64,000 nucleotides of DNA, taken from contig JBGUNV010000002.1 of NCBI GenBank assembly GCA_045117595.1, positions 2,659 to 66,658 on the forward strand, given 5' to 3'. Of the stretch, positions 15,668-49,639 are shown piece by piece. Numbering within the stretch: position 1 is the stretch's first letter; every line of letters begins with the position of its first letter. The notes under the pieces are model-generated. The model searched no databases, had not been told where the DNA came from, and saw only the letters and a program-made list of their open reading frames with translations. Origin of the DNA: Lachnospiraceae bacterium (GTDB lineage: Bacteria; Bacillota; Clostridia; Lachnospirales; Lachnospiraceae). Both the position numbers and the translations under genes were made by a program.

Positions 15668-15740
15668 ATATTCCCGGGATCGCGGGCTGTTTGCATAAAG
15701 AATCCTGTTGTGGTAGTATTTGATAAATGAATATTGAATG

Positions 15741-17810: not shown

Positions 17811-17842
17811 TCATAACAGGGTAACAAAGGATCGTATATTAT

Positions 17843-19411: not shown

Positions 19412-19412
19412 T

Positions 19413-20423: not shown

Positions 20424-20445
20424 TCTGACAAAGTATCAAAAGTAT

Positions 20446-24477: not shown

Positions 24478-24494
24478 CCGACAGGTGGAACGGA

Positions 24495-25280: not shown

Positions 25281-25358
25281 GAAGCTTGTGAGAGACTGAA
25301 ACCAGGTTGGTAAGAATCTGGTAGGAAGAAACAATGAGAGAAAGGAAAAACCCGACAG

Positions 25359-27956: not shown

Positions 27957-27960
27957 ATAA

Positions 27961-29907: not shown

Positions 29908-29908
29908 T

Positions 29909-30667: not shown

Positions 30668-30719
30668 ATAACACCATAAAATAACACTAATGAATAACAT
30701 ATAGTATTTTATAAGCAAA

Positions 30720-31775: not shown

Positions 31776-31779
31776 GTAT

Positions 31780-32511
31780 ATGGGCAGGATTTATGTGATA
31801 GGTATAGGCCCCGGGGATATTTCCTCAATGACCAAAAGAGCATTACAGGCGATTGAAGAATGTGATGTGATCGTCGGATACAGGGTATATATGGATCTGG
31901 TCAAGGAGATATGTACCGGAAAACAGGTTATAGAGTCTGGTATGCGGCAGGAAACAGAAAGATGCAGGACATGTATTGATCTTGCTAAAGAAGGCAGGAC
32001 GGTCGGACTTGTGTGCAGCGGAGATGCCGGAGTATACGGAATGGCCTCTCCCATGCTTGAGATTGCTGAAGAAGAGGGCTTTTCCGATGTGGTGATCGTT
32101 CCCGGAGTGACCAGTGCCCTGTCATCTGCGGCGCTCCTTGGAGCTCCGATAGGGCACGATTTTTGTGTTATAAGCTTAAGTGACCTGCTGACACCGTGGG
32201 ATGTCATTGAAAAGAGACTGAATGCTGCCGCAATGGCGGATTTTTGCATCGTTATATATAATCCCGCAAGCAATAAAAGACCGGATTATCTGAAAAGAGC
32301 ATGCCAAGTTATGTCAACCACAATACCACCCGAACGCCCGTGCGGATATGTCAGAAATGCCGGAAGAGACGGTGAGAATGTCACGGTCTGTACGTTTGAG
32401 GAACTGGATAATGCTGCGGCAGATATGTATACGACCGTTTTTATTGGAAATTCCGCAACAAAGGTAATTAACGGTAAGCTCATAACACCGAGAGGATATA
32501 CGATAGATTGA
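31780..32511 (+). CDS. cbiH: Cobalt-precorrin-3B C17-methyltransferase
   Basis: IYVIGIGPGD, VCSGDAGVYGMASP, and typical length. Confidence 0.85.
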   Translation: MGRIYVIGIGPGDISSMTKRALQAIEECDVIVGYRVYMDLVKEICTGKQVIESGMRQETERCRTCIDLAKEGRTVGLVCSGDAGVYGMASPMLEIAEEEGFSDVVIVPGVTSALSSAALLGAPIGHDFCVISLSDLLTPWDVIEKRLNAAAMADFCIVIYNPASNKRPDYLKRACQVMSTTIPPERPCGYVRNAGRDGENVTVCTFEELDNAAADMYTTVFIGNSATKVINGKLITPRGYTID

Positions 32512-34043: not shown

Positions 34044-35505
34044 AGACGCAAATAAAAATGATCGTGATATGACAGCAGGACTAATGGTGCCAAGAGTCAT
34101 GATAGCAGCTGATGCAAGCGGGGCGGGCAAGACCATTATGACATGCGCACTTCTTCACATACTGAAGGAGCGTGGGCCTGATCCGGCTCCGTTTAAATGC
34201 GGGCCCGATTATATAGATCCTATGTATCATCTGACACAATGCGATGTACCGTCAGTAAACCTCGACACGTTCCTGGCGGGCAGGAGTGCCATACCGGAGC
34301 TGGTCGCAACAGCTTTCGGCCGTTATGCCGTGATCGAAGGGGTGATGGGGATATATGACGGTATATCTCCGGATTCGTTTGAAGGATCGTGTTATGAGAT
34401 AGCACAGCTATCACACACTCCTATAATACTTACGGTTGACGCTGCAGGTGCCGGAAGAACGCTGATCTCGCGTATTAAGGGTATACTGGCCGATGACAGG
34501 GAGCATCTGATAAAGGGGATAATATTAAACCGTATGTCAGATGCATATTATTCAAGGTCGTATGCCGCATTTTCCGAGGAACTTGCCCGGTGCGGTTATG
34601 AGACAAAGATTCTGGGCAATATCCCGAAGCTCGAGGCGGCCGGTATGGACAGCAGGCACCTCGGACTTAAGATGCCGAATGAGATTGATGATATCAGGAA
34701 GCGTATCGGTGACGTCGCCGATGTGCTCGGTAAATGCTGTGATATTGATGGTATCATAAGGATCATGGAAGAGGCGCCGCCCGTATTTTCCGAAGATGAT
34801 GCGGCAACCGTTAACGAAGATAATACTGAAAGGACAGACTGCAAAAGCCTTGCAGGTGTGCATCTGGCCGTTGCAAGGGATGAGGCATTCTGTTTTTACT
34901 ACAGCGAAAACCTCCGTCTGCTTGAAAGGATGGGCGCAAAAACAGAGTATTTTTCACCCATACATGATAAGGCGATTCCAAAGAAGGCGAATGCACTCCT
35001 TATCGGAGGCGGATATCCCGAGCTGTATCTGGAGGAACTGTCAAAAAACACCTCAATGCTCGGATCGGTGCGAAGCGCGATAAATGCAGGTATGCCAAGC
35101 ATCGCAGAATGCGGCGGGTTCATGTATCTGCATAAAACGGTCTGTGACCGGGACGGAAGAGAGTATGACCTTGTTGGTGCGGTAGACGGAAAATGCACTT
35201 ATACCGGACATCTTGTAAACTTCGGATATACCATGGTGAAGGGTGGAAACCCTGATAGATCCGCTGACGATTCGAAACAAAAAGGTGTTGCGGAAGTTCT
35301 TGCAGGTATGAGAGGGCATGAATTCCATTACTATGACAGTACCTGCAATGGAGAGGATATTGAGTTATGTAAACCTTCGACAGGTAAAACATATCAGGGG
35401 ATGATAGCCGGGGCCGCCCGTCTATGGGGATGGCCGCATCTGTACTATCCGTCGGCACCGGATGCCGTCATAAAAATCCTTAAGCCCGCAGATGATATCA
35501 GATAA
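34024..35505 (+). CDS. cbiA: Cobyrinate a,c-diamide synthase
   Basis: AADASGAGKT P-loop, FKCGPDYIDP, and a GATase region with IAECGGFMYL and GHEFHY. Confidence 0.85.
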   Translation: MKKAMSEDANKNDRDMTAGLMVPRVMIAADASGAGKTIMTCALLHILKERGPDPAPFKCGPDYIDPMYHLTQCDVPSVNLDTFLAGRSAIPELVATAFGRYAVIEGVMGIYDGISPDSFEGSCYEIAQLSHTPIILTVDAAGAGRTLISRIKGILADDREHLIKGIILNRMSDAYYSRSYAAFSEELARCGYETKILGNIPKLEAAGMDSRHLGLKMPNEIDDIRKRIGDVADVLGKCCDIDGIIRIMEEAPPVFSEDDAATVNEDNTERTDCKSLAGVHLAVARDEAFCFYYSENLRLLERMGAKTEYFSPIHDKAIPKKANALLIGGGYPELYLEELSKNTSMLGSVRSAINAGMPSIAECGGFMYLHKTVCDRDGREYDLVGAVDGKCTYTGHLVNFGYTMVKGGNPDRSADDSKQKGVAEVLAGMRGHEFHYYDSTCNGEDIELCKPSTGKTYQGMIAGAARLWGWPHLYYPSAPDAVIKILKPADDIR

Positions 35506-35553
35506 CAGCGACCGAAGACGATAACGAAGGAATTCATAGAATATTGAGGTACC

Positions 35554-35790
35554 ATGGAAAATTCAACGACTTTTTTTGCAAACAAAGCATGTAAATACTA
35601 CCCATGTCATGAATGCAGCGAGGACATCAACTGCCTGTTCTGCTACTGTCCGTTGTATGGGATGGACTGTCCCGGCGATTATACGATGGTAAAAAAGGGC
35701 GATAAAGAAGTCAAAAGCTGTGTGAACTGCACATTTCCGCATATCGCGTCAAATTACCCCGATGTGATCAGACTGTTAAAACTCCGGTAA
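35554..35790 (+). CDS. Cysteine-rich small domain protein (zf-like family seen in cobalamin clusters)
   Basis: 78 aa with the motif CKYYPCH..C..INCLFCYCPLY..CPG...C.NC. The family call is from memory of the Pfam Cysteine-rich small domain. Confidence 0.6.
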   Translation: MENSTTFFANKACKYYPCHECSEDINCLFCYCPLYGMDCPGDYTMVKKGDKEVKSCVNCTFPHIASNYPDVIRLLKLR

Positions 35791-35868: not shown

Positions 35869-35897
35869 TTGTAAAAGTATGTGATTGACATTATAAT
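35869..35897 (+). promoter_or_regulatory. Putative promoter of the TIR/RyR operon
   Basis: TTGTAA (35869-35874), a 17-nt spacer, then TATAAT (35892-35897). It lies 48 nt upstream of the ATG, which has the Shine-Dalgarno sequence GAGGAGG. Confidence 0.5.
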
Positions 35898-35945
35898 TCA
35901 ATTCATGCGGATTAAGCAGAAATATATTATTGCGAGGAGGACGAA

Positions 35946-37844
35946 ATGGGACTATCTAAGGAAGATATCAGAAGGAGAAATGAAGCGACCGTAGGAATAA
36001 GGACATTTGAACCCAAGGATGATAAGGATTATGTGTTTATCAGCTATAAAAGTGATAACTGGGAAATCGTTCTGGATGAAATAGTCAGAAAACTGGTCGA
36101 TAAATACGGCCTTCGTGTATATTTTGATAAGAATTTCGATCGTGATAATGAATCCTGGGTAACTAATATGGAGGATGCTATCAGAACACAAAAGTGCAAG
36201 GCAATCCTTTCATTTGTCAGTAAAGAGTATATGGAAAGTTATGCATGCCTGATGGAACTGCTGACCGCAAGGTCCAAAAAAGCAAAATCCAAACATAAAA
36301 AAGACAGACTTACCATTTGTCCCATTATAATAAGTGAGGCAAAATCTATAAATGATCTTGCATCCACATCAAGTGACAGAGTGGAAATAAAAGAATGGGA
36401 TGATTACTCGGCTATCGTAGAAAATGCATTTGAAAATGATGAGTGGGTCAAGGGTGATGTCAAGGACTCGATTGGTGAACTGTTGGATAACGGGTCAAGG
36501 GCTACTATAGAAGATATTTCATCTGCGATGGAATCAATTCTTGATGATAAAACACATCTGCGGACATATGACGGGTCGGACCTGTTCTATGAGAATCTGG
36601 TTGATTCGCTGAAAAAGGAAAGTGACACCATTTTTGAGGAGATCAAACCCGTTAAAGTCGAAAAAGAAACTCCTATAGTCGAAAAGGAAACTCCTAAGAA
36701 AACAGAAACAAAGGTTGCTCCTATCGTTGAAGAAGCAAAGATTTATCATCTGTCCACCAGAACAGGGAATATTGATGTCACATTTCAGGTGGTTGAAAAT
36801 GGTTTTATTGTTAAACAGGGCAGTAAGATACATGAGGCTCAGTTCACTCCTAAGAAGATCATGAAGGCTAACATAGATAAGATATCCCATGGGGTTCTTA
36901 CAGGAGATATTTGTATAGATGGTGACGAGGGAGTATTGTCCCGATTTATTGCGGGAAGCGATAATTATAAGGCCCAGATCAGATCTATGGTGGCCGATAA
37001 TTCCGATAATACAAATGTTTCGAAGCCGGTTGAACAAGAGAAAGAGAGCAAAGAGACAATAGGGGAAACGAAAGTCGGTGATCATTCTGTGATTGATGAC
37101 AAGAGCGCTGCCAAGGAGTTTCTTGCTAAAAAAGGTGTAAGAATCAGCAATAAACTTACTTATGCAGCTTATAACGAAAGGACAGATGGTTTTTGGGCAA
37201 ATCCGAAACCGGATAATCTAAAGGAGGAATGGACATTGATTTTGAACAACAAGATAACAGGAAAACTTGTTGTTCTTATTGTGCCACCTAATAGCATAGG
37301 ACTCGAAAGTGAGAACGTAAATGGTTTGAAAATCAGACGGGACAGACCTGTGATTGACCTCGTCATAAGCGATGATGGTGAGTATACGGATAAAAGAAGT
37401 AAGGTAAGTTTTAAACCGTTTGTTGTTGCGCAGTATTCTTATTCCGGCGACGAAAAGCCGGAGGGAAGACAAGATGGAAGTATGCGTCGCGGTGAAATAG
37501 ATTATTATGTCTATGGAGAAAAGCATTCCGGGGATCAGTCTGATCTTATGTTTGATACCATAGAAGCAGTGCTGACAAGGCATCCGGATATATGCGACAG
37601 AGCAGTACAAAAGTGTACATGTCTTGCATATGGTGACGACATCTATTCGCCTGAGGGTACTCTTGTTCCGTACTTCAGAGGAAAAAGAGAGATTACCGTT
37701 AACGGGAAAAAGGTTTATATAGGTTCGAGTTACGGCCTGGATGCCAAGAAGACTCAGATGCGTTATGTGATAAATCTGGCTCAGGAAAAGATCACGGATG
37801 TAGTTCGGATAGACAGTGAAGACCCCAGATACAGATTTGGATGA
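35946..37844 (+). CDS. TIR-domain protein with a long uncharacterised C-terminal region
   Basis: The N-terminal 110 aa, DYVFISYKSDN...RVYFDKNF...AILSFVSKEYMESYACLMELL, carry the TIR beta-A and catalytic-Glu-helix signatures. A KE/P-rich linker with the tandem repeat VEKETPIVEKETP follows. The remaining region of about 380 aa has no motif I recognise. Confidence 0.7.
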   Translation: MGLSKEDIRRRNEATVGIRTFEPKDDKDYVFISYKSDNWEIVLDEIVRKLVDKYGLRVYFDKNFDRDNESWVTNMEDAIRTQKCKAILSFVSKEYMESYACLMELLTARSKKAKSKHKKDRLTICPIIISEAKSINDLASTSSDRVEIKEWDDYSAIVENAFENDEWVKGDVKDSIGELLDNGSRATIEDISSAMESILDDKTHLRTYDGSDLFYENLVDSLKKESDTIFEEIKPVKVEKETPIVEKETPKKTETKVAPIVEEAKIYHLSTRTGNIDVTFQVVENGFIVKQGSKIHEAQFTPKKIMKANIDKISHGVLTGDICIDGDEGVLSRFIAGSDNYKAQIRSMVADNSDNTNVSKPVEQEKESKETIGETKVGDHSVIDDKSAAKEFLAKKGVRISNKLTYAAYNERTDGFWANPKPDNLKEEWTLILNNKITGKLVVLIVPPNSIGLESENVNGLKIRRDRPVIDLVISDDGEYTDKRSKVSFKPFVVAQYSYSGDEKPEGRQDGSMRRGEIDYYVYGEKHSGDQSDLMFDTIEAVLTRHPDICDRAVQKCTCLAYGDDIYSPEGTLVPYFRGKREITVNGKKVYIGSSYGLDAKKTQMRYVINLAQEKITDVVRIDSEDPRYRFG

Positions 37845-37862
37845 TAAAGCAGGAGAAAAATA

Positions 37863-40301
37863 ATGGCTTATAATGCTCTCGACAGTATGAAAAGGATCAA
37901 TGAAGAATTACTGGGGGTTCAGATCGCCGGTGTTCCGAAGCTTGGAGAGGATATTTTTGATGACGGACCCAAATCAGATATACCGGCTTCGGCCTGCAGG
38001 TTTATCAGGGAATGTGAAGATCTGGGATTCAATCCCGGATCTGATGAGATTGCCTCATACAGGGAACTCCTTGAAAGATTAAATGATCAGAAGGATTTTT
38101 CGACAGATAATAAGTTTACCGGAAAAAGCGCCGGAAGAGGCCAGATACCCGAAAATGTAGAAAAGGATCTGGACAGACTTTCTTTTGAAAATGCGATAAG
38201 ACGATTCTGCAAGACAGGTTCAGGGGATGATGCATTTGATGTCTATTTCTGTTATCTGTCTATATTTTTCGGCGATTACAGAAATACACGGGATATCATC
38301 GAGATGCTCTGTGAATTTGAGAATAATGCGGGATCCCTGCTGATGAAACACAGGGATCACTATTCACATTCCGTTTATGTTTTTCTTATCGGACTTGCCA
38401 TATACGAGAACAACAGACTGTATCGTAACAGTTATTCTGAGTATTACAACCGGAAGATGAAGTCCGAGGGAAGGGAAGAGACATTAAATGAGATCGGAGC
38501 GAGAAGACATTTTCTGAAGTTCTGGGGTCTGACATCATTGTTCCATGATATCGGATATCCGTTTGAATTGCCTTTTGAGCAGATAAAAAGCTATTTTGCA
38601 AACAGTGTTTACAAGAGAACAGCCAGGAGCATCAAGGACAGTTTTATCCAGACAATGCCGTATGTGGCATATCAGAATATGAATGACTTCCTGTCGAATC
38701 TGAATATCAACTCCAGGACAATCACACAGACAGATCTTAATGAAAAGATCGATCAGTGGACAAATAATGAAAGAGTCTGTGATCTGTCGGATGTGTTCTC
38801 ATTGCAGTTATCCAAAATGTTAACGGGTTCGGAGAAGTATTACGATCCGAAGAATGATAAAAATCCGTTTACAGCTTATTGTAAGTCCCGCGGTATCAGA
38901 CTTCTGGAAGATAAAGCACCGGATAATTACCAACAGTTGTACAGACGGTATCTTCAGGATGTGCTTGGTAATAAACCGTCTCATCCGGAAGCATTCAACG
39001 GTTATATGGATCATGCCTATTTTTCTGCTGTTCTGATGCTCCATAAGATGAATGAAATGAAGGAACTACAGATTAACACGGACTATACGGATGCATTGTG
39101 TGCGATACTTTTGCACAACAGCATCTTTAAGCGGGCCATTGTAACAAATGGCAACAGGGATCATGCATTTTCCGTTGATGAGAGCCCGCTTGCATATCTG
39201 CTTATGTTATGTGATGAACTTCAATGTTGGGACAGGGCATCTTACGGACTTAACAACAGAAATGCCATTTATGCCATGGATTGTCATTTTTCGTTTGATG
39301 AATCCGATGATTCGGTGGAAGTAAGATATATTTTTGATGAGTATTTCAAAAAAAACAGACGTCTGGAGTTTTATGACTGGATAAAGGAAAAGGCAGCCGA
39401 GAAAAACAGCTCTCTCAAAGAATACTATAAGAGTTTCAGGGCGTTGGATGAAAATGATTATAAGAATCTGTATGACAGCGAAATATACAGGGATTCGGGG
39501 GAAACGGTTTATCATTACTTTTTGAACATTCTGGATAATCCTTCCGTTGATCTTCCTGAAAAGATGAATGATTATCTCCAGATGAGTACAACAGACAAAG
39601 AAAGCCCCAGTAAGTTCTTTTCCGATCTGGAAGAAATAGTAAAATTAGACGGAACAGAAGGTGTTCTTGTGAGAATACCTCCGGTAGACAGCAAAATTTC
39701 TACTGAGAAACACAAGGAAAAGAATACCTATCTCTCACGGTCAAGTTACATGCATTTATATGATTTTGCTGTAGCACTTAATTATCAATATAATTGCAGG
39801 AATAAGGAAAAAGTCTTTATCGGCGCATCTCCGGATATGATGGAGGAATCATTTGCAGATATATCACTTGAATATCAGCTGTCAAATATCAACCAGGCCA
39901 AGTCATTTGCCGGATATCTGGATGAAATAGGTGCATACTATACGGATCGCCCTGTAGGATACCCTCCTCTTGATCATTTTGAAGATGATGAACTTCGACG
40001 TCTTGGTATTATGGAGCATGACAGATGGTGGGAAGAAAAGAAATCCATGGGCTGGACAGCGGACAAATGGATCAGGGAGAAAGAGGGCGGACACGGAGAG
40101 ATAACAAGCCGGCTCGGTCTTAAGGACAGAGTATGGCTTCGGGAATGTATACATATTCATTGCGATATGAGGAAATTCTCGGAACTTGACCAGAAGGATA
40201 TCCGGAAGGATACCGACCCGATGAATGATATGGTCAGGCTGCTTGAGGAATACGACGGACTGAGGATATACAGAACGCAGAAAAACAAAAAGAATGGTTG
40301 A
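37863..40301 (+). CDS. HD-domain phosphohydrolase fused to a C-terminal RyR-like domain
   Basis: HD superfamily motifs in order: HRDHYSHS, LFHDIGYP, LLHNS, LCDELQCWD. The C-terminus has MEHDRWWEEKKSMGW ... FSELDQKDIRKDTD, which resembles the bacterial RyR repeat. Confidence 0.65.
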   Translation: MAYNALDSMKRINEELLGVQIAGVPKLGEDIFDDGPKSDIPASACRFIRECEDLGFNPGSDEIASYRELLERLNDQKDFSTDNKFTGKSAGRGQIPENVEKDLDRLSFENAIRRFCKTGSGDDAFDVYFCYLSIFFGDYRNTRDIIEMLCEFENNAGSLLMKHRDHYSHSVYVFLIGLAIYENNRLYRNSYSEYYNRKMKSEGREETLNEIGARRHFLKFWGLTSLFHDIGYPFELPFEQIKSYFANSVYKRTARSIKDSFIQTMPYVAYQNMNDFLSNLNINSRTITQTDLNEKIDQWTNNERVCDLSDVFSLQLSKMLTGSEKYYDPKNDKNPFTAYCKSRGIRLLEDKAPDNYQQLYRRYLQDVLGNKPSHPEAFNGYMDHAYFSAVLMLHKMNEMKELQINTDYTDALCAILLHNSIFKRAIVTNGNRDHAFSVDESPLAYLLMLCDELQCWDRASYGLNNRNAIYAMDCHFSFDESDDSVEVRYIFDEYFKKNRRLEFYDWIKEKAAEKNSSLKEYYKSFRALDENDYKNLYDSEIYRDSGETVYHYFLNILDNPSVDLPEKMNDYLQMSTTDKESPSKFFSDLEEIVKLDGTEGVLVRIPPVDSKISTEKHKEKNTYLSRSSYMHLYDFAVALNYQYNCRNKEKVFIGASPDMMEESFADISLEYQLSNINQAKSFAGYLDEIGAYYTDRPVGYPPLDHFEDDELRRLGIMEHDRWWEEKKSMGWTADKWIREKEGGHGEITSRLGLKDRVWLRECIHIHCDMRKFSELDQKDIRKDTDPMNDMVRLLEEYDGLRIYRTQKNKKNG

Positions 40302-41766
40302 TGAAAACAAGGAAAAAAAGAAGATAAAACTGTTCACATGGCCTCTTATCATAATATCTCTTGCGGGTGGTGTGATCAGTTATCTGTACGCAGGTTACAC
40401 GTTTGAAGATGCCTTATATTCGGCGGTTGACATGTTTGCGTTTAATATTGACGATATACCGTTAAATGCAGGCCTTCGGATATTTCGCTGGCTTGCCCCG
40501 CTGTCTGTTGCCACAACGCTTTTTATTGAGATAGCCCCGATATTCCGATGGTTTCGAGACAGGATCGTATTCTTTGCGCCGGGATCCGGCAGGACCATTA
40601 TCTACAGCGACTGTGAAGCCGGTAGCGCGTTATACGATAACATGGAAAAACATGCCGTATTAAGGAGGGAATGTACCCCTTTTGCCCTTTCGGATAATGC
40701 CAACAGATCAGTTATCCTTATGAAAAATGATAAGGATGCGCTCTCTCTTTTTCGAAAGCTCGGAAGACCTGATAACAGTTTTCTGTGTCTGAATTCGATG
40801 GAGCCGTCATTGATACCTTCATCGGGTAATACAGTTGTTTCCAATATCAATGATATAATAGCCGGTTATTTCTGGCATAAGGAGTTTATGGCCTTTGCGG
40901 GAAAGGATACGACCGGAGGACTTTTATCATGGCGCGGTCGTGATGGAATACCGGTTTTTCGAAAAGAAAACGACAGGTGTTTTCGGATCGTGATCTACGG
41001 ATTTACGGACCTCGGTAAAAGACTTCTGTACAAAGGACTGCTGTTCAACATTTTTTCACCGTCTCAACACATTATATATCACGTCTATGATCCGGATCAT
41101 AAAGTATATCTGTACCGCAAAGATATAAACAATGCTGTCTCTGTAAATGGTGATAAGGTTTTATTTCACGATAACCCGGATGATCTCGCGAAGATCCTGA
41201 ATGAAGCTGATGCGATAATAATACCCGGGTCTTCGAATCCACGTTTAATACAGGAACTGCTGTATTCAACCGCCAAACCCGAACTGTATTATTATGATCC
41301 GGAGGGAGTAGGACTTGAGACTGTATTCGCCTCAGACGATCGTGTGGTCCGGGAGGGGTTGTATGGCAGGTTACATGCGTTCGGATCGGATAAGAAGATA
41401 TTCATCGAAAAATATATTCTTCACAGCAGTCTTATAGAAAAAGCCCGGAAGATCAACGAAGACTACCTTATTTCCAATCCCGGAGAAGGACATGTGTGGG
41501 AGGAACTTTCGGGATTTGATAAAGGCTCAAACGTTAATGCAGCTGATTATATCGAGATAGGCTCAGAGGTAAGTTCGTGGGATATGTTCTCCCTTGATGA
41601 ACTTGCAAGTTTAGAACATGACAGATGGCGAAGATATAATTATTTAAATCATCAGGGTTCTAACAGCAATCCGGCGGGAAACTCCAGATATTTCGTTCCA
41701 TTTTCCGAACTTGATGAAGCTGATAAGGAAAAGAACAGAAGGATAGTAAGATTATGGACATTTTAG
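40294..41766 (+). CDS. 2-TM channel-like membrane protein with Rossmann/RCK-like segments and a C-terminal RyR-like domain
   Basis: TM1 WPLIIISLAGGVISYLYAGY, a pore-helix-like FEDALYSAVDMFAF, and TM2 FRWLAPLSVATTLFIEIAPIF. A TrkA-N-like segment is FRIVIYGFTDLGKRLL. The C-terminus has LEHDRWRRYNYL...FSELDEADKEKNRR. It overlaps the upstream gene by 8 nt. Confidence 0.55.
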   Translation: MVDENKEKKKIKLFTWPLIIISLAGGVISYLYAGYTFEDALYSAVDMFAFNIDDIPLNAGLRIFRWLAPLSVATTLFIEIAPIFRWFRDRIVFFAPGSGRTIIYSDCEAGSALYDNMEKHAVLRRECTPFALSDNANRSVILMKNDKDALSLFRKLGRPDNSFLCLNSMEPSLIPSSGNTVVSNINDIIAGYFWHKEFMAFAGKDTTGGLLSWRGRDGIPVFRKENDRCFRIVIYGFTDLGKRLLYKGLLFNIFSPSQHIIYHVYDPDHKVYLYRKDINNAVSVNGDKVLFHDNPDDLAKILNEADAIIIPGSSNPRLIQELLYSTAKPELYYYDPEGVGLETVFASDDRVVREGLYGRLHAFGSDKKIFIEKYILHSSLIEKARKINEDYLISNPGEGHVWEELSGFDKGSNVNAADYIEIGSEVSSWDMFSLDELASLEHDRWRRYNYLNHQGSNSNPAGNSRYFVPFSELDEADKEKNRRIVRLWTF

Positions 41767-41775
41767 GAGGAAAAG

Positions 41776-44625
41776 ATGAAACTTGTAATAAGGACGAGAG
41801 GCGATCTGACATCAAGAGATAAAGAAAAAGTGCTATTGGCGATTGCATCGGATGATATAGGATTATATGCCGATGTGATGATTGAGGATCTCCTTAAGGC
41901 TGCAAATGTAGCGGTATATTATCCTGCGTCAGCAAATGATACAAAAGACGGTGTGATAGAGATTGATGAGACGAAACCCGAAGAGTATTTGGAGGAATTT
42001 CGCCTGATCATATTTCCTGTAACGATGAACTTTCTGGAAAAGGATAATCCTGTCCGGGACCAGATCCTGCCGTATGTTATTCATCATAAAGCGTATATAC
42101 CCATAATACTGGAGAGGGATCTGTTGGAGAGTTTTGGTGATCATTTTGGAGACATTCAGTTCCTTGACCGGTACGGTCTATACAAAAAGGGCGAAAACGA
42201 AATCCCGTACGAGGAAAAACTGAAGCTGAGAATGAGCGAGGTCATAACCTCTGACAGCGAGCGTGACAGGATAGATGATGCATTCAGGGCTATGATATTT
42301 TTAAGTTACAGGAAGATTGACCGGGTTGAGGCGCAGAAACTGATGAATCTGGTTCATAGTGATCCGGACTGTGAGGATATAGCTATCTGGTATGATGAGT
42401 ATCTTGTACCTGGTGAGGATTTTAATGAAGCGATCAGGAGTGCCATGGATAGATCAGATGTTATCGCACTCAATGTAACGAATAATCTTCTTGAGATCAC
42501 GAACGGAAAACCCAATTATGTGATGGATCAGGAATATCCGAATGCGAGAAGGAGCCAAAAGCCCATAATCTCGGTAGAAATGGAGAAAACAGACAAAGAA
42601 GCGCTCAGGGAACATTACGAGAAAATAGATGACAGTCTGGTGACGGTTGATGAACATGATAAGGTCCCCGAAGAGCTGAAACGCGTACTGGACCGGATCC
42701 GGGATGAACTCAGGACCAAGAATGCTGACAAAAAGGCTCTTTCGGAAGAAGAGAAGGAATACTATCTGGGACTTGCATATCTGGGTGGTGTCAATACCGA
42801 GAAGGATCAGATGAGGTCGAAGGAATTACTCGAACGATCTGCAAACCAGGGCCTTGCCAGGGCAATGAAGAAACTATCCCATGCTTACAGAAACGGTGAC
42901 CTGGGAGATATCAGTATTGAAAAATCGGCGGAGTGGATGAAGGAAGCTGTTGAGAACGAGGCTGGTGAAGCTGTTGCATGTGCCGACAGAGAATCTTTTG
43001 AACTGTTCAGGGAAGACTGTCTGGACCTGTGGGATATGTATGATTCGATAGAAGATGATACCGGGAGAGACCATTGTAAAACGCTGATGGTTGATGCCTG
43101 GCGCAAACTCCGTCAGAGTATCAGAGAAGATATGGAGTTGTATGAGATCGTTACGGGATCTTGCGTCAGGGCATGCTGCAGAAGGGGCGATACAGTCACG
43201 TGCAGGGAGGTGCTTCAGGATATCGATTCACTCTTCAACAATCATCAGGGACTTGATGAATGTAAACTTGTCGTGTCACTTCGTTCGGATGCTGCATACA
43301 GAATGGGAGATTATTCTCTGGCTCAATATGTCGGGGGTGCTATGAGGATCATAGAAACAGAGTTTGGGGACAGTGTTTCCGATGATGAAATGTATGATCT
43401 GTATTATCTGATGACCAGGGGTTATTCCGGGAAGGACATAATAGACGGCCTTGCTTTATTCGGAACATCTTTGCGAGTGTCAGAGGAATATCTGCAAACA
43501 GAATATTTGTGGTGGGACAGCTCCGATAAGGCAATAGCTATCACGCAGAAGTGCCTGGCGGATGATCCGGAAGATACACTTTGGAAGAAAAGAAGAGCTG
43601 AAATACTCATGGAAAAAGGCAACCTGATCAGCCGATCCATCTGTGCAGTACAGTGTGATCTTGTTGATAAAGAAGTTGATGATGCGGCATTTTCATATAT
43701 GACTGAAGCAATAGGCCTGTATAAGGAGATCATTCATGATATCGGGGATAAAAATGAGATCAGGAGAGTAATAGAAGAGATTAAAAGATCCGGATTCTTC
43801 CTGATATCCAACTATCCCGAGAGGATGCCTGATATAACGGGAGTAGAGTTCTACAGGTATTCGGTAGAACTGGCAGAATCTTTGTATAAAGAGGAGAAAA
43901 GTCGTGAAAATCTGCTGTTTCTCTGGGAGACAGTAAGTTATTGCTGCGAGATAGGCTATATATATGATCTTCCGGATAAGGCCATCGCTATCGCAAAGGA
44001 ACTGTATGAGAGCGATCACACGCTATCGTCATACGAACACGTTGCCAAGGCATATGAACTGAAGGCTACACGAGGGTTTGGCAGGGCCGGCGAACTCGAA
44101 TATGAGATTGCCACCAATGAAGCCGGTGCACAGGCACAATCGGGTGACTATGATGATATCGATATGGAATCGTTTGCGCGACTGTTTGATGAGTATATTG
44201 CTTTTTTCAGCAACAGAAGAGATGCGGTTGAACCGGAGGAGACGGATTTTATACTGTTAAAAAGGGAAGGAACCGAAGCTCTGTCTTATGCAGTGGCTAT
44301 ATACAGGGAAGTGTATGATAAAGCGGGAATGATGTCTGAACGCTATCGGAAAAAGATTCTCGGTAATATCATCAGCTGTTACAGATCGTTTGAGGCATGT
44401 GCCGATGTGGAAGATGGTGATTTCGGTAAAAAGGCGCTCGATAAACTGGCAGAGGGAATGGATTTTATACTGAATGAAGCTTCCGCGAAGGATACCATAA
44501 TTTCGCCTGACTGGTTTAAAGAATGGAGAAGTATGTATAATACGGCCCTTGACGGCGGTTATGACAGCGAGGCACTCTCAGTCAGAAGATCCCGTGCCGA
44601 GAGTTTGGCGGGAGACAGGATCTGA
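41776..44625 (+). CDS. Tandem TIR-like domains + SEL1/TPR-like repeat protein
   Basis: Residues about 172-270 read IFLSYRKIDRVEAQKL...IAIWYDEYLVPGEDFNEAIRSAMDRSDVIAL...YVMDQEY, which is TIR-like. Residues 1-130 resemble a second, degenerate TIR. A SEL1-like segment reads YYLGLAYLGGVNTEKDQMRSKELLERSANQGLARAMKKLSHAY. A helical-repeat region of about 550 aa follows. Confidence 0.65.
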   Translation: MKLVIRTRGDLTSRDKEKVLLAIASDDIGLYADVMIEDLLKAANVAVYYPASANDTKDGVIEIDETKPEEYLEEFRLIIFPVTMNFLEKDNPVRDQILPYVIHHKAYIPIILERDLLESFGDHFGDIQFLDRYGLYKKGENEIPYEEKLKLRMSEVITSDSERDRIDDAFRAMIFLSYRKIDRVEAQKLMNLVHSDPDCEDIAIWYDEYLVPGEDFNEAIRSAMDRSDVIALNVTNNLLEITNGKPNYVMDQEYPNARRSQKPIISVEMEKTDKEALREHYEKIDDSLVTVDEHDKVPEELKRVLDRIRDELRTKNADKKALSEEEKEYYLGLAYLGGVNTEKDQMRSKELLERSANQGLARAMKKLSHAYRNGDLGDISIEKSAEWMKEAVENEAGEAVACADRESFELFREDCLDLWDMYDSIEDDTGRDHCKTLMVDAWRKLRQSIREDMELYEIVTGSCVRACCRRGDTVTCREVLQDIDSLFNNHQGLDECKLVVSLRSDAAYRMGDYSLAQYVGGAMRIIETEFGDSVSDDEMYDLYYLMTRGYSGKDIIDGLALFGTSLRVSEEYLQTEYLWWDSSDKAIAITQKCLADDPEDTLWKKRRAEILMEKGNLISRSICAVQCDLVDKEVDDAAFSYMTEAIGLYKEIIHDIGDKNEIRRVIEEIKRSGFFLISNYPERMPDITGVEFYRYSVELAESLYKEEKSRENLLFLWETVSYCCEIGYIYDLPDKAIAIAKELYESDHTLSSYEHVAKAYELKATRGFGRAGELEYEIATNEAGAQAQSGDYDDIDMESFARLFDEYIAFFSNRRDAVEPEETDFILLKREGTEALSYAVAIYREVYDKAGMMSERYRKKILGNIISCYRSFEACADVEDGDFGKKALDKLAEGMDFILNEASAKDTIISPDWFKEWRSMYNTALDGGYDSEALSVRRSRAESLAGDRI

Positions 44626-44630
44626 ATCGT

Positions 44631-45869
44631 ATGACTATGAAAACAACCGGTTCGGGAAAAAGTGAATATGAGAAGCTCATGTCGGCATATATGGAAGTCT
44701 GGATAGTTTATGTTCTCAGAACGTTTTCGACACGGGAACATCCCATGAGCCGGAAGGAGATCGCCGACAAGGTCAGTGAACTGATAAATATCGGTACTGT
44801 ATCTGAAACCAGACAATCGGATAATACCATCGCCAAAACCGTTTCCAGAAGACTCGATGAACTTGAAATGATGGGTAATCTCTACGAAGGAGAAGGTGGG
44901 AGCCATGTTCCTCCGGCGTTTTACAGAGTGATGGGAGGAGCGGTAAAAGTAATACAGGATCGCCCTGTCAGATACTATTTTGATCCGATACTTGCTCCCG
45001 GAGAAGTATCGATGATATGTGCCGCGATCGAGAGTAATCATTATCTGTCCCCCGAAGAGATCAATTACCTGATAAAGCGTGAGTGTGCCGTACTGGGGTA
45101 TCAGGAACAGGAATTGCATCTTCCTGTAACAAACTCTGCATCCGGAAGATCGCTCAGGCTTCCCAAACGTCCCAGGTCGGGAAACGATCTCACTCTCCCG
45201 CCGGCAAGGTCATCGGTAACTCTCAGAAAGATCGCAGTTATACAGTATGCCATAGCAAGAAAACTTATGATAAGAGTTATTCCGGGGACATATTCAAACC
45301 GCGACGGCAAGATCGTATTCGGACCCAAAAGGGACAGGGAGAGTATTCTCAATCCGTATGCCATGATCTCTCAGAACGGTCAGTATTATATTGTCGTTAC
45401 CCATGAAGGTTTTACAAATCCCACGCATTACAGGATCGACAGGCTGTTTTCGGTAAGTCTCTGTGAAGATGAGAATCCGAGGAGAAAGCAGATAGCCGGG
45501 TATAAAAAGCGGGAACCTATACCTGTAAGGCTTCAGAGATTTTTTACCGGAAACGGGAAGTTCAAGGCGGATGAGTATACGGCCATATATCCGCTGATGA
45601 TATATAATGAGGGCGAGGGAATAAAACAGTGCCGGTTCCTGTGTGCCAAAAGCGGTGTTACGGTAGCGATAGACCACTTCGGAGTCGGAGTAGGTGTGAA
45701 GATGGAAGAGACGGATGATGATTCAAAGGTTTTGTTTACAGTCATGGCTGATTACAATAATGTCAGATATTTCTGTATCCAACAAAACGCCATTGTAAGT
45801 CCCGTCGCTCCCGATGAACTGAAAGATGATGTGAAACAGGCACTGAAAAAAGCATATGACGCGATATAG
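44631..45869 (+). CDS. wHTH-WYL-WCX transcriptional regulator (BrxR/CapW-like class)
   Basis: The N-terminal wHTH reads MSRKEIADKVSE...TVSRRLDELE. The WYL core reads LNPYAMISQNGQYYIVVTHEGFTNPTHYRIDRLFSV. The C-terminus, FTVMADYNNVRYFCIQQNAIVSPVAPDEL, is WCX-like. Confidence 0.7.
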   Translation: MTMKTTGSGKSEYEKLMSAYMEVWIVYVLRTFSTREHPMSRKEIADKVSELINIGTVSETRQSDNTIAKTVSRRLDELEMMGNLYEGEGGSHVPPAFYRVMGGAVKVIQDRPVRYYFDPILAPGEVSMICAAIESNHYLSPEEINYLIKRECAVLGYQEQELHLPVTNSASGRSLRLPKRPRSGNDLTLPPARSSVTLRKIAVIQYAIARKLMIRVIPGTYSNRDGKIVFGPKRDRESILNPYAMISQNGQYYIVVTHEGFTNPTHYRIDRLFSVSLCEDENPRRKQIAGYKKREPIPVRLQRFFTGNGKFKADEYTAIYPLMIYNEGEGIKQCRFLCAKSGVTVAIDHFGVGVGVKMEETDDDSKVLFTVMADYNNVRYFCIQQNAIVSPVAPDELKDDVKQALKKAYDAI

Positions 45870-45874
45870 TTAAC

Positions 45875-45888
45875 GGACAGATCTGTCC
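45875..45888. repeat. Perfect 14-bp palindrome GGACAGATCTGTCC
   Basis: Read directly from the sequence, 6 nt after the WYL gene stop and upstream of the terminator. Confidence 0.9.
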
Positions 45889-45917
45889 AAACACATATTT
45901 GTAACGGAGATAATATA

Positions 45918-45952
45918 AGATCACAGAAATGGTTCTGTGGTCTTATTTTTTT
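45918..45952 (+). terminator. Intrinsic terminator closing the five-gene operon
   Basis: Hairpin AGATCACAGAA-ATGG-TTCTGTGGTCT followed by TATTTTTTT. Confidence 0.7.
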
Positions 45953-45973
45953 GAGTATGCAGGAGGGAAGATT

Positions 45974-47647
45974 ATGGGTAATGAGGTTTCGGTAAAGGAG
46001 CTGATATTAAATGAGGACGAGCTTACCGGAACGCGTGTAAAACGCCGGAAGGATAAGAGCGGATACACATATCGCGTCATCATGCAGAGCGGTTGTGATT
46101 TTGCGATAGAGCGTACCCGTAAGAACCAGAAGGGTTCAGTACGTCTTGTAATACTTGTCAGCCGGGAGCAGTACTATCTGGAGGAGAACGGAAAAGTCAG
46201 AAGACTGAACCGCAACATGTTCAAGAGTTTCTTCGGCTGTCTTGAGAAGGGCAGCACGATCCCCCTTCCGGATGTAAACTGGCTTGATCATATAGAATAT
46301 GACGGACCCCGGGGAATGGTACAGAAGATAGCGGATATCCTGTTTGTCAGAGAGTATATCCGGTTCCACGATATGATCCGGCATGGGAGTTTTGCCTGTC
46401 AGAACGAACATGATTTCGGATTCTGTTCAAATATCTGTGAGGTACGCTATACGGGGGATAACAGGAAACTGATCGGTGATTTTGCTCCGTATGCCGAACC
46501 GGATGTTCAGATGGATGAGGTGTTTGGGAATCCCTTTTTACCGAATGATCCGTTTCGGGACAATGAAGGGATTGAAGGTGATTGTCTGTTTGACCCTGTG
46601 TTTATCGTCAGATATTATGCCGGATACAATCCTGCAAAGGAGTGCGGCATCAGATTGGTGGAAAATGCGGGATTCTGGATGCTTAGGCCATCTTATGAGG
46701 AATTGCAGTGCAGCCTTTGTAATCTCTCTCCCAGGTTATATGAGTATATGCTGAGCATGTTATCCGAGCGGGCACAGGTTTCCAAAAAGGAGCTGCTTAC
46801 AGGGATATTATGTGACTGGAAGCGGGTTGAATCCATGTTATTCCAGAGCTTTCCGGCCTTTGTGATGATAGAATGCTCATTTGGAACGAATACGGCCCGT
46901 AAGGCGATGAACATGTATCTGGATAGCGGGATAGCGGATATCATACCGGCAACGCAGATGTCCATATTCCTGTTCGGATCCCGGATAATCCTGCCTTTGT
47001 CTGATCAAAATACAGGAAACATATATCATCTTAAAAGTGAGTCTTTTTTAAGGTACATGTTCAACGAATCCGTCAGACAGGGTTATATGCATAATATGAA
47101 TCTTTTTCTTTACCAGTGGGGACAGTTTCTGTTCCTGCAGCGGGCGATGGAATGTAAGAGGGTGGATAAGTATCCGAAATATCTGGCATCCCGTGTTGTG
47201 GAACTGATGTCGATGATACCGGATTACAGCGAGCACGTAGAAAAGATGCTGTGGGAAGAGGCCGTGAGGTATGCCGAACCTCTGGAATACAGGGGAGAAA
47301 AATACAGTATCATCATCCCCAGACGAACCAGAGATATAGTCGAAGAGGCCGAAAGGCAGGGTAATTGCCTGAGGTCATACGAGTCTGCAATTTTGCGGCG
47401 ACAGACAAGGATATGTTTTCTCAGATACACCGACCCGGCCAGGGCGGACATATCACTTGTGACCCTGGAGGTATCGGGAGATGCGGTCATACAGTGCAAG
47501 GCGCGTTACAACGCCGTTCCATCAATCGAACAACTGGAATTCATCAGGGAGTGGGAGGCGGCCCGCTCACTTCACGGGGAATATTATCCAAATTATTACA
47601 CTTATCAGGAATTTCAGGGCATAGATACAGATGATGAAACTGCATAA
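45974..47647 (+). CDS. PcfJ-like domain protein
   Basis: Start at ATG 45974 behind AGGAGGGA. The C-terminal block EAERQGNCLRSYESAILRRQTRICFLRY...SLVTLEV...VIQCKARYN resembles the PcfJ-like family signature (E..GN/HC...Y...I..G......R). The N-terminal region of about 420 aa is unassigned. Confidence 0.55.
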   Translation: MGNEVSVKELILNEDELTGTRVKRRKDKSGYTYRVIMQSGCDFAIERTRKNQKGSVRLVILVSREQYYLEENGKVRRLNRNMFKSFFGCLEKGSTIPLPDVNWLDHIEYDGPRGMVQKIADILFVREYIRFHDMIRHGSFACQNEHDFGFCSNICEVRYTGDNRKLIGDFAPYAEPDVQMDEVFGNPFLPNDPFRDNEGIEGDCLFDPVFIVRYYAGYNPAKECGIRLVENAGFWMLRPSYEELQCSLCNLSPRLYEYMLSMLSERAQVSKKELLTGILCDWKRVESMLFQSFPAFVMIECSFGTNTARKAMNMYLDSGIADIIPATQMSIFLFGSRIILPLSDQNTGNIYHLKSESFLRYMFNESVRQGYMHNMNLFLYQWGQFLFLQRAMECKRVDKYPKYLASRVVELMSMIPDYSEHVEKMLWEEAVRYAEPLEYRGEKYSIIIPRRTRDIVEEAERQGNCLRSYESAILRRQTRICFLRYTDPARADISLVTLEVSGDAVIQCKARYNAVPSIEQLEFIREWEAARSLHGEYYPNYYTYQEFQGIDTDDETA

Positions 47648-47668: not shown

Positions 47669-49639
47669 ATGTCAAAAAACATGAACCTTTTAAAACCGGA
47701 TATACGAGATGGACATTTTAAGGGTACAAATGATAATGAACGGTACAGAATCCTTCATATACCGGCGGATGACTGGGATGACCGCCTGGAAGAGGATATC
47801 AGGGCCGGAGCGGTGCAATACGGTGCATGCAGGGAATGTGCCGGGGATAACCATTTCAGATTTGTTATCATTCAGTGCGACACGGAAGAAGAGGGACTGA
47901 ATGCGATAACTTATATCAGGGGAGCCCGGGGATTTGGCGGGGATGCGGATGATGAAGACGATCCCGTCGAAGATGACGGGGATTACGGATGGTTTGAATT
48001 CGATAATAATCTGCCTGTGATCAGCATGAATGAGATAGCAGCATATGAAAAGGAGACATCTGAAGATGTTAATAATCAGTTTTTGTTTCAGGAGGCGAAG
48101 AAGAAGGAAAAAAGCAATCCTTACTGGCTGAGTTACAACGGAGATGTGATCATAACCGACGTGTGTATGACGGATGATTTCGGAAACATTGCGCTTCGTA
48201 ATTATGATCTGAATGCTTTTTCCAATCCTTTCATGGATTCAACCGGCAGTAAATGGAAATGGCATGAATATTTTGATAGATTTATGGAGGATCCGGATGC
48301 AACAGTGTTCTATGTTCTGGTACGGGACAGAGGATTGAAGGAGTTGTTTGAAGAACATAAACAGGATGATACGGATGATGAGTTTGATGATTTCGGTATG
48401 TACAGATGCAATTTTGATGAGGACTATTCTCTGTGTTCGCTCGTGCTGAAATATACGGCGGAAACAGTTGTGATCGATGCTAAAAAGGAGCAGAAGGAGA
48501 AGTATTACACAGGCCTGTTTAAAAACTGGCTGGAAGAATACGGATACACTCTTGAAAAAAGATTCCCGGTCAGGAAGCTGCTTAAGGGCATTTGTATGAT
48601 GGACCCGGCCCCGTCACAGACAATGGACAGGATCTTAAGGTTTATCCGCCACAAGTATCCGGATGTCAAGGTTCTTGAGAGGTCATTGTTCACCCAGACC
48701 GGAGTGCTCAAAAATGTATTTGATTACAAGAACGAAGAGAAGAAGCGCCAGAACCATGAACTTACCATGGATGATCTTGTCGGGATGAAGGATATCAAAA
48801 AGCAGTTCAATGACATCATCAGATCGATCAAGTTCAGTCGAAAGAGGCAGGAAAAAGGTCTTCCGATGCTCGATTACAGGAATATTTTTCTGCTCATAGG
48901 TGCCCCGGGTACAGCCAAGACAACCATGGCCAATATTCTCGGCAGGATGATGAGACAGGAAAAGCTCCTCGGCGGCACCAGATTCGGATCATTTTCCGGA
49001 GCGCAGCTTAAGGCTGAATACGTCGGACAGACGGCCCATAAGGTTCATAGTATATTTGAAAATCACGATATAATAATCATTGATGAGGCTTATTCACTTA
49101 CGGCATCGGATCACGGCGGCATGGATACCTACAGTCAGGAGGCTCTCGGACAGCTTGCCATCGAACTTGAGGAACATGGGACAGACAGGCTTGTATTCTT
49201 TGCGGGGTACGGCGGAAATGATGTAAGTGAGAAGAATAACAAGATGAGGGAGTTTCTTGATGCCAATCCGGGGATCAAGAGCAGGATCAACGGAACGATC
49301 GTTTTTCCTTCATACAGCGCTAAGCAGATGGTTGAGATAGTAAAGGGCATAGCCGGCAGATACGGGTATATATTTGAGGACGGAGCGCTTGACGGACTTG
49401 AAGGATACTATGCAAAGCGTATATGTGACGAGAGGTTCGGTAACGGCAGGGAGGCCAGGAGTTTTGTCGACAACTGTCAGATGACGCTTGCATCAAGAAT
49501 CATGAACATTCCGCCTAATAAGCAGACCAGAAAAATGATGCAGCTTATCACGAAGGAAGACGTGGATATGACCATAAAGCGGCTGTCCGAATCCGACGAT
49601 AATCAGACCGGGAAAAAAGTGATATACGGATTTGCCTGA
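47669..49639 (+). CDS. AAA+ ATPase, SpoVK/CbbX/EccA-like, with an unassigned N-terminal region of about 380 aa
   Basis: Walker A LLIGAPGTAKTT, Walker B IIIIDEAYSL, and a CbbX-type tail with GNGREARSFV. The N-terminus has acidic low-complexity stretches. Confidence 0.8.
   Translation: MSKNMNLLKPDIRDGHFKGTNDNERYRILHIPADDWDDRLEEDIRAGAVQYGACRECAGDNHFRFVIIQCDTEEEGLNAITYIRGARGFGGDADDEDDPVEDDGDYGWFEFDNNLPVISMNEIAAYEKETSEDVNNQFLFQEAKKKEKSNPYWLSYNGDVIITDVCMTDDFGNIALRNYDLNAFSNPFMDSTGSKWKWHEYFDRFMEDPDATVFYVLVRDRGLKELFEEHKQDDTDDEFDDFGMYRCNFDEDYSLCSLVLKYTAETVVIDAKKEQKEKYYTGLFKNWLEEYGYTLEKRFPVRKLLKGICMMDPAPSQTMDRILRFIRHKYPDVKVLERSLFTQTGVLKNVFDYKNEEKKRQNHELTMDDLVGMKDIKKQFNDIIRSIKFSRKRQEKGLPMLDYRNIFLLIGAPGTAKTTMANILGRMMRQEKLLGGTRFGSFSGAQLKAEYVGQTAHKVHSIFENHDIIIIDEAYSLTASDHGGMDTYSQEALGQLAIELEEHGTDRLVFFAGYGGNDVSEKNNKMREFLDANPGIKSRINGTIVFPSYSAKQMVEIVKGIAGRYGYIFEDGALDGLEGYYAKRICDERFGNGREARSFVDNCQMTLASRIMNIPPNKQTRKMMQLITKEDVDMTIKRLSESDDNQTGKKVIYGFA

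Follow-up and report, generated by a model that had tools for sequence, protein, structure and literature searches.

The window analysed here, a stretch of 64,000 nucleotides (nt) from a Lachnospiraceae bacterium (contig JBGUNV010000002.1 of assembly GCA_045117595.1, positions 2,659-66,658), contains a compact group of five genes, here called P1 to P5, which an original prediction made from the sequence alone had put forward as a candidate anti-phage signalling system. With a probability of roughly 0.6, we interpret this locus as a Thoeris-like anti-phage signalling system in which a domain of the ryanodine receptor (RyR) Repeat12 type would act as the signal receptor. The TIR and HD domains encoded at the locus have intact catalytic residues, P2 and P3 share an RyR module, relatives of P2 are linked to TIR genes across genomes, and P2 retains the residues with which phage RyR proteins contact their ligands. 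The proposed function as an un-named TIR-based signalling system is supported by the shared module, by the conserved linkage and by recent preprints on phage RyR proteins, and also by PADLOC, which names no system at the locus and returns weak matches to TIR, WYL and AAA families only, with none to ThsA. New would be the RyR receiver domain and the types of effector, while TIR- and Thoeris-type signalling as such is already known.

The RyR module of P2 and P3

The protein family of P2 has over 2000 members, most of them about 650-700 residues long, and all are annotated as hypothetical. Family alignment, Pfam matches of homologues, a profile search of the PDB and a structural model lead us to describe P2 as a putative HD enzyme that ends in a tandem Repeat12-like module. 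In an alignment of 50 members, the ordered H, HD, H and D motifs noted in the original prediction are invariant (H169, H228-D229, D383-H384, H418 and D451, making up the HD site), as are E718, H719, R721, W722, D783 and P786, with H766 and K782 nearly so. When these homologues were scanned singly, Pfam RyR was recognised in 20 of the 50 (best 9e-6) and Pfam HD in seven (best 3e-5). The family profile found as its sole matches in the PDB the Repeat12 chains of ryanodine receptors and a 'putative ryanodine receptor' of Bacteroides. The AF2 model of P2, based on the 50-member alignment, has a pLDDT of 85.4 and a pTM of 0.91, and its top Foldseek match is human RyR3 Repeat12 (residues 848-1055) with ATP (6uhh), at a probability of 0.98, a TM-score of 0.48 and 220 aligned columns spanning both repeats; the E-value of this match is weak (0.17) because the query was the whole 812-residue model. 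With the RyR domain of B. thetaiotaomicron, TM-scores of 0.57-0.60 were obtained. Foldseek matches of the HD type were weak (the HD-GYP protein Bd1817 and the dNTPase 2dqb), and we take the HD motifs of P2 to be closer to the dNTPase type. Comparison of the whole P2 model with the viral structures of BFVD gave noise only, and phmmer searches of the PDB with P1, P2, P3 and P5 gave no meaningful match.

P3 appears to be a K+-channel-derived protein with two transmembrane (TM) helices, Rossmann/RCK-like domains and the same receiver as P2, and can be described from its sequence as a degenerate K+-channel relative with putative channel function. A word-indexed search identified eight relatives, two of them with Pfam RyR. 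Two relatives (P0127 and P0128, 516 residues) combine Ion_trans_2, a TTVGYGD selectivity filter and RyR, and their TM1, pore helix and TM2 align with the N-terminal helices of P3 and the short helix in between. At the filter position P3 reads FAFNIDD rather than TTVGYGD, and it has no Pfam match to Ion_trans_2. An exhaustive search with the module of P3 (residues 375-490) yielded 115 cluster representatives; among the 75 that were scanned, which are nearly all those of at least 300 residues, Pfam RyR was found in 74 (best 1e-40), TrkA_N in three and Ion_trans_2 in one. The earlier description of P3 as a channel-like protein with a RyR tail can thus be retained for the tail, the two TM helices and the Rossmann-like segments, while the channel-like character is drawn from the alignment with K+-channel relatives, whose filter P3 lacks.

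A family of K+ channels of about 515 residues (P0127-P0235), with TTVGYGD and Ion_trans_2, ends in an RyR domain with the full H/W/H/KD pattern discussed below. Each of these channel genes overlaps an upstream gene for a multi-TM protein of about 625 residues that also ends in RyR (locus L099, 5122-8560; L102, 5133-13627), and in L102 a ThsB_TIR-TPR gene lies 3 kb 3' of the channel pair.

The modules of P2 (residues 632-785) and P3 (380-483) align with each other in hhalign with a probability of 94.8% and an E-value of 5e-8, bearing out the suggestion that two different effectors share a receiver-like module, and identifying it as an RyR Repeat12-type domain. A further family of 660 residues (F660) likewise ends in RyR. 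Since P2, P3 and F660 all carry this domain, it looks like one receiver common to different effector bodies, as known for CARF, SAVED and SLOG.

A ligand for this receiver is suggested by two preprints of 2026, the scope of which is viral proteins and the animal receptor alone (PMC13232231; 10.64898/2026.06.04.730250). The RyR-domain proteins of phages studied there act on 2'cADPR, 3'cADPR and cyclic ADP-ribose (cADPR) itself, either by binding or by cleavage (PMC13232231; 10.64898/2026.06.04.730250). RyDEP, a glycosidase with the catalytic dyad H75/D117, contacts its ligand through H75, W78, H100 and D117, and it is the terminal ribose and the phosphates of cADPR isomers that such residues contact in the phage proteins (PMC13232231). 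RyR Tad sponges 3'cADPR (KD 43 nM), 2'cADPR and cADPR, with contacts from H129/W132, K147/H154 and K170/D171 (10.64898/2026.06.04.730250). As phage RyR domains bind cADPR isomers of the kind made by TIR enzymes, the idea of a receiver gains a concrete biochemical basis. P2 retains H719-x2-W722, H766 and K782-D783, with a His-to-Asp spacing of 17 that equals that of the phage proteins, and the K+-channel-RyR relatives of P3 retain the pattern at +3, +25 and +41/42, identical to the phage proteins. No description of bacterial TIR-RyR systems was found in the literature.

The same residues allow a different role for P2, that of a signal-clearing or self-limiting enzyme, in which the RyR module, the HD domain or both would degrade the messenger made by the TIR proteins, comparable to ring nucleases in type III CRISPR, leaving P3, and nucleases or SLOG proteins at other loci, as the real effectors. 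P2 is the constant hub beside varied effectors, HD enzymes include phosphodiesterases, and HD-GYP and phosphodiesterase folds are among the Foldseek matches of P2; the HD motifs are, on the other hand, presumably more like those of dNTPases, and the many loci consisting of TIR and P2 only would then hold a generator and an off-switch with no effector. H719 and D783 of P2 correspond to the catalytic dyad of RyDEP, yet seven of the eight other phage RyR homologues tested, with similar residues, bind the ligand without cleaving it (PMC13232231). We consider a clearing role for P2 distinctly unlikely.

TIR partners and conserved gene neighbourhoods

The TIR domain of P1 is recognised by Pfam TIR_2 with 49.7 bits (E 6.4e-13; cut-off 28 bits), that of P4 with 32 bits against the same cut-off, and P4 also matches ThsB in PADLOC (1.7e-4). 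E104 of P1, within CLMELL, and E253 of P4 occupy the catalytic Glu column in an alignment with B. cereus ThsB and other Thoeris TIRs, which confirms the N-terminal TIR domain with conserved Glu that had been predicted for P1. For P4 a tandem TIR followed by SEL1 repeats had been predicted. One TIR is clear, and the Sel1 repeats, which are sub-threshold in Pfam, match Sel1/TPR proteins of the PDB at an E-value of 2e-7; residues 1-165 are recognised as TIR neither by Pfam nor by a purpose-built TIR hidden Markov model (HMM), so that the tandem arrangement is unverified. The C-terminal domain of P1, of about 130 residues, occurs in one to four copies in the TIR partners at related loci, and is common to the TIR proteins of L001, L009 and L011. 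The middle third of P1 (residues 169-501, nt 36450-37448) holds a linker rich in Lys, Glu, Pro and Thr at about residues 225-265; this middle region has no Pfam match and only a faint likeness to PDC-S14 of PADLOC (E 0.004). P4-like TIR proteins adjoin P2 homologues at six loci (L037, L039, L050, L072, L085 and L094), and both P1-like and P4-like TIR proteins are seen as the partner of P2 across loci. We propose that P1 is an infection sensor and signal generator, and P4 a second one.

Relatives of P2 were found in 525 species-representative genomes (one genome per species), mostly of gut and rumen Clostridia, Lachnospiraceae and Oscillospiraceae among them, and 80 loci were kept for gene maps based on HMMs. 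Of these 80 loci, 54 contain a TIR gene, and in 53 of those 54 the nearest one is on the same strand as the P2 homologue. Distances were determined for the loci in which the P2 homologue is flanked by 3 kb or more on either side, which also number 54: the nearest TIR gene is no more than 100 bp away in 23 of them, no more than 3 kb in 37 and no more than 10 kb in 43. The co-localisation that the original prediction had named as a check is therefore found, for TIR, P2 and further effectors, across many genomes. Proteins identical to those of the window are encoded on one contig in NCBI and on two in ENA. At loci of close relatives, 61-64% identical to P2, TIR-P2-P3 recurs without P4 or P5, as in L001 and L002. 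In L003, L004 and L015 the order is TIR, a 126/127-residue protein, P2, P3, GNAT, TIR, GNAT and a 1082-residue protein; genes for a WYL protein and a CbbX-like AAA+ protein are found directly upstream in L015.

The companions of P2 vary. The 80 loci include P3-like RyR proteins in 18, the F660 RyR family in four, a SLOG/DUF4231 protein in 20, and, likewise in 20, a PDDEXK_4 protein of 405 residues that matches the PADLOC candidate PDC-S26 at 1.7e-32. The commonest cassette is P2, TIR, PDDEXK_4, P3-like; because the PDDEXK_4 gene lies between the TIR and P3-like genes there, PDC-S26 may belong to TIR systems rather than standing alone. TIR and P2 occur by themselves in nine loci with a plain TIR and in four where the TIR protein carries the P1 repeat.

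Several of these neighbourhoods deserve separate mention. The nuclease-like PDDEXK_4 gene is found at 13892-15109 in L026, and occurs in 19 further loci. In L003 and L015 (L015 11479-16894), which hold the nearest relative of the window operon, P3 is followed by GNAT, a TIR protein of 359 residues, GNAT and the 1082-residue protein, and in L003 then by an IS21 element; the C-terminal half of the 1082-residue protein is a second P2-like HD domain, 37% identical to residues 111-502 of P2. An alternative context is seen in L045 (3496-13637), with a TIR protein of 391 residues, an LRR protein of about 1280 residues and, further on, P2 and a protein of 530-550 residues with weak matches to YAcAr-SLOG and DUF4231; L062, L064, L079, L088 and L093 are similar. 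A stand-alone P2 homologue of 678 residues (L005-L008 and L030, 8001-10037) is very common in mouse-gut metagenomes, being listed in 293 blocks. Among 2.9 million viral contigs of IMG/VR the P2 family occurs at one locus, which has no TIR gene, and with this single match a role of P2 as a phage anti-defence protein was rejected.

A number of observations weigh against a TIR-driven system with an RyR receptor. P2 of the window matches no Pfam family even at E ≤ 10, HD and RyR included, and P3 reaches a sub-threshold E-value of 0.17 with Pfam RyR; since their own sequences stay below threshold, the domain assignments of both are carried by homologues, profiles and the model. The HD domain and RyR-like C-terminus originally ascribed to P2 accordingly hold at the level of the family, and not in a Pfam match of the protein itself. 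The AF2 model of P3 (nine sequences) is poor, with a pLDDT of 65.9, and as its Foldseek matches are generic double-Rossmann dehydrogenases only, it supports the term 'Rossmann-like' and nothing further. The ligand pattern of P3 is partial: H442, W445 and K480 are kept, and S464 and N481 replace the His and the Asp. No TIR gene is found within 10 kb in 11 of the 54 loci with full flanks (about 20%), among them the stand-alone mouse-gut homologue, which has identical downstream genes but four different upstream neighbourhoods, nor within 7 kb of the K+-channel-RyR pair of L099. No known defence genes lie beside the island within the window. One of the 18 further putative Thoeris types listed by Yirmiya et al. 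could already include the P2 family, under another label. Finally, Repeat12 also binds ATP (6uhh), so the RyR module could read ordinary adenine nucleotides.

This last point, together with the P2 homologues and K+-channel-RyR proteins that have no TIR gene nearby, fits a form of defence with no dedicated messenger. P1 and P4 would then be NAD+-depleting TIR effectors, as in the contexts of TIR-pAgo, AVAST and CBASS, and the RyR modules would read bulk ATP, ADP, ADP-ribose (ADPR) or NAD+, coupling metabolic collapse to secondary effectors; many bacterial TIRs are indeed NADases, as a recent Thoeris survey also states (10.64898/2025.12.03.692087). Against this stand the tight same-strand linkage to TIR genes (about 80% of loci) and the presence of several effector types per receiver, which are the signature of a messenger system, and the conservation in P2 of the residues through which the phage proteins make contact with the terminal ribose and the phosphates of cADPR isomers (PMC13232231). 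We regard this explanation as unlikely, and retain that of a messenger read by an RyR receptor.

The island and its accessory genes

The coordinates of the five genes P1 to P5 agree with those of the original prediction, as do the spacings between them (18, -8, 9 and 5 nt). The genes form part of an island of seven genes, all on the + strand, that extends from 35.8 to 49.65 kb (Table 1), as delimited by the end of a cobalamin operon at 35790 and the start of the genes tig, clpP, clpX, lon and engB beyond 49707. The 3' part of the cobalamin operon encodes a CbiJ/methylase, a CbiA/CobQ-type amidase and a Cys-rich zf-like protein. The functional unit is probably larger than five genes and reaches 49639, as the pair of WYL and AAA+ genes recurs at related loci.

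Table 1. Features of the island and its immediate surroundings (positions in the window)
Feature	Position	Strand	Length (residues)	Details
Cys-rich zf-like ORF	35554-35790	+	78	last gene of cobalamin operon, just 5' of the island
Putative sigma-70-like promoter	35869-35897	+		TTGTAA-N17-TATAAT, 10/12 match, in the 156-nt gap 5' of P1
P1, TIR protein	35946-37844	+	632	TIR residues 30-138 (nt 36033-36359), catalytic E104; C-terminal domain residues 501-631
P2	37863-40301	+	812	putative HD phosphohydrolase, residues ~100-470 (nt 38160-39272); RyR module residues ~620-805 (nt 39720-40277)
P3	40294-41766	+	490	two N-terminal TM helices and pore-helix-like segment, two Rossmann-like domains, RyR module
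P3 RyR module	41431-41742	+		residues 380-483; H442, W445, K480
P4	41776-44625	+	949	N-terminal alpha/beta region, residues 1-165; TIR residues 174-285 (nt 42295-42630), catalytic E253
P4 Sel1 repeats	42739-42975	+		residues 322-400, followed by a helical C-terminus of ~550 residues
P5, WYL-domain protein	44631-45869	+	412	PADLOC WYL 3.8e-10
Intrinsic-terminator-like hairpin	45915-45953	+		14-bp stem and T-run (45915-45946), 3' of P5
PcfJ-like protein	45974-47647	+	557	ATG preceded by GGAGGG; Pfam PcfJ 1.4e-9
AAA+ ATPase	47669-49639	+	656	CbbX/EccA/SpoVK-type AAA and AAA_lid_6, residues ~357-633; N-terminal domain of ~355 residues

The promoter and terminator proposed in the original prediction are present in sequence and position, and are the top-scoring + strand matches of the region. 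Promoter-like sites number 27 against 25.8 in shuffled sequence, and terminator-like sites eight against 7.1; as this is no excess, both signals are plausible by position and not statistically established. A search for an operator-like repeat 5' of P1 gave just two weak AT-rich palindromes.

The setting of the island bears on the possibility that the locus has no part in immunity and serves housekeeping or stress signalling by ADPR or nucleotides in gut Clostridia, acting for example on ion flux or nucleotide pools. The island has housekeeping operons on either side and is flanked by neither defence nor mobile-element genes, and the RyR-tailed membrane proteins of L099 are found in a metabolic neighbourhood. 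Arguing for an immune function are a patchy distribution at varying genomic positions, a GC content that falls to 0.40-0.45 over 35-45 kb, from about 0.48 in the flanking sequence, the repeated sensor domains of the TIR proteins, and companions typical of defence loci, i.e. the PDC-S26-like nuclease, SLOG/DUF4231, LRR-TIR and WYL. A purely non-immune role is in our view quite improbable. An origin as mobile element or prophage was rejected, as there is no integrase, no tRNA gene adjoins the island and the flanks are housekeeping genes. The three tRNA genes of the window (Val-tac, Met-cat and Thr-ggt; 4237-4387 and 14144-16) all lie away from the island, and a cobalamin riboswitch at 15734-15946 (Rfam RF00174, 98.5 bits) leads the long + strand cobalamin-biosynthesis operon (16152-35790).

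P5 is a probable transcriptional regulator of the locus, judged by its WYL domain; WYL regulators of the BrxR/CapW class control defence loci. In Pfam P5 scores 18.1 bits for WYL (cut-off 21.8), and six homologues pass this cut-off. The wHTH-WYL-WCX architecture predicted earlier thus stands for WYL; for wHTH and WCX there is no profile match and no PDB sequence match, and sequence comparison with the solved BrxR/CapW structures gave nothing significant. The AAA+ ATPase, which has Pfam and NCBIfam matches and resembles CbbX of the PDB (1.5e-22), is a probable accessory partner of the WYL protein. Over their full lengths, P5 is 30% and the AAA+ ATPase 34% identical to the corresponding proteins of L015, and in nine of the 80 loci, plus L015, the P2 homologue has a WYL-AAA+ pair no more than 10 kb away. 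Possibly the two genes form a regulatory or accessory module of their own. Adjacent WYL and AAA+ genes near P2/TIR cassettes were seen in L015, L020, L023, L026, L041, L042, L048, L059, L066 and L075; in the window the two are split by the PcfJ-like gene. Whether the latter is part of the system is uncertain, because the gene is seen at the window locus only, with no counterpart at related loci. The start of its mechanically called open reading frame, 45929, falls inside the terminator hairpin, and the start given in Table 1 is the likely one.

Proposed mechanism and comparison with known systems

We propose the following sequence of events. P5, possibly together with the CbbX-like AAA+ ATPase, would control expression of the locus, by analogy to BrxR/CapW. 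P1 and P4 would detect infection through their non-TIR parts, i.e. the repeated C-terminal domain of P1 and the Sel1 and helical repeats of P4, and would then convert NAD+ to an ADPR-derived messenger, most likely a cyclic ADPR isomer. To judge from the phage RyR proteins, this messenger could bind the tandem RyR module with which P2 and P3 end. Binding may turn on the HD phosphohydrolase of P2, for which nucleotides (in line with its dNTPase-like motifs), nucleic acid and the signal itself are candidate substrates, and may open or assemble the K+-channel-derived P3 in the membrane. As a presumed outcome, the infected cell would stop growing or die.

A more far-reaching idea, which we offer tentatively and hold at less than even odds, is that RyR Repeat12 is the true cellular receptor for cyclic ADPR-type messengers made by TIR proteins, gating an HD enzyme and a K+-channel-derived protein, that phage RyDEP and RyR Tad are captured copies of the host receptor, and that the long-debated link between cADPR and RyR in animals descends from or mirrors a prokaryotic immune module. 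If so, RyR Repeat12 would join CARF, SAVED, SLOG and Macro as a receiver domain defining messenger-based immunity, two new effector types would be added within a widespread family of TIR systems, and the existence of RyR-domain sponges and glycosidases in phages would find its explanation on the host side. The locus would also offer a tractable bacterial model for an old question, that of a direct action of cADPR-type molecules on Repeat12 of ryanodine receptors. The P2, P3 and F660 families lie outside the coverage of PADLOC 2.0, and are therefore currently invisible to defence annotation with it.

The locus resembles Thoeris in that TIR genes, with the catalytic Glu conserved, adjoin genes for effectors equipped with a dedicated ligand-sensing domain; operons with more than one TIR and more than one effector, and effectors that include hydrolases and ion-channel or membrane proteins, are also described for Thoeris in the survey, in which types V-XI are validated and effectors of 29 classes listed (10.64898/2025.12.03.692087). 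The main text of the survey makes no mention of RyR, an HD domain or WYL (10.64898/2025.12.03.692087). P2 and P3 have no PADLOC, Pfam or NCBIfam match to the described Thoeris effector families, comprising ThsA SIR2-SLOG, Macro-TM, SLOG, caspase, DUF2270, DUF6650, SLATT, CMP-hydrolase-TPR, TIR-SLOG, ion channel and HIT. The locus differs from Thoeris in its RyR Repeat12-type receiver, as opposed to SLOG, Macro, DUF2270, DUF6650, SLATT, TPR and others, in its effectors (a putative HD hydrolase and a degenerate K+-channel/Rossmann protein), in its large, multidomain TIR proteins (632 and 949 residues), in the presence of the WYL and CbbX-like AAA+ pair, and in its PADLOC matches, weak for ThsB and absent for ThsA. 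None of the Thoeris types I-XI fits the locus, the type X channel having been compared by description only. In type X, as with P1 or P4 and P3, a TIR gene adjoins a channel-type effector, but the TIRs listed for it (cluster 2598792572, ThsB-like, about 140 residues) differ from those of P1 and P4. When the type X ion-channel effector was sought through its TIR in a plasmid collection, all three loci inspected were of type II (macro).

BrxR/CapW systems likewise have a WYL-domain protein, with its gene at one end of a defence operon; P5 differs in recurring with a CbbX-like AAA+ ATPase, which to our knowledge is not part of any described BrxR/CapW system. With the CARF and SAVED effectors known from type III CRISPR and from CBASS, the locus shares the principle of one receiver fused to alternative bodies (nuclease, hydrolase, membrane pore), and differs in fold, messenger class and generator, TIR here as against Cas10 or a CD-NTase. 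Animal ryanodine receptors, too, have a Repeat12-type domain on an ion-channel protein, with an ADPR messenger made by a TIR or cyclase enzyme proposed as modulator, and it is RyR3 Repeat12 that P2 resembles most in structure. In the animal protein the domain is part of the cytosolic shell of a channel of 5000 residues and its role in sensing cADPR is unproven, whereas P3 is a protein of 490 residues with two TM helices and without a canonical selectivity filter. RyDEP and RyR Tad belong to the same domain family as the modules described here (PF02026), with the same H-x2-W ... H ... (K)D ligand pattern, but are small viral proteins that form homodimers and, as sponges or glycosidases, turn defence off. 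The module at the present locus is a covalent tandem pseudo-dimer, and as it is located C-terminally on large host proteins encoded next to TIR genes, it probably switches its effector on.

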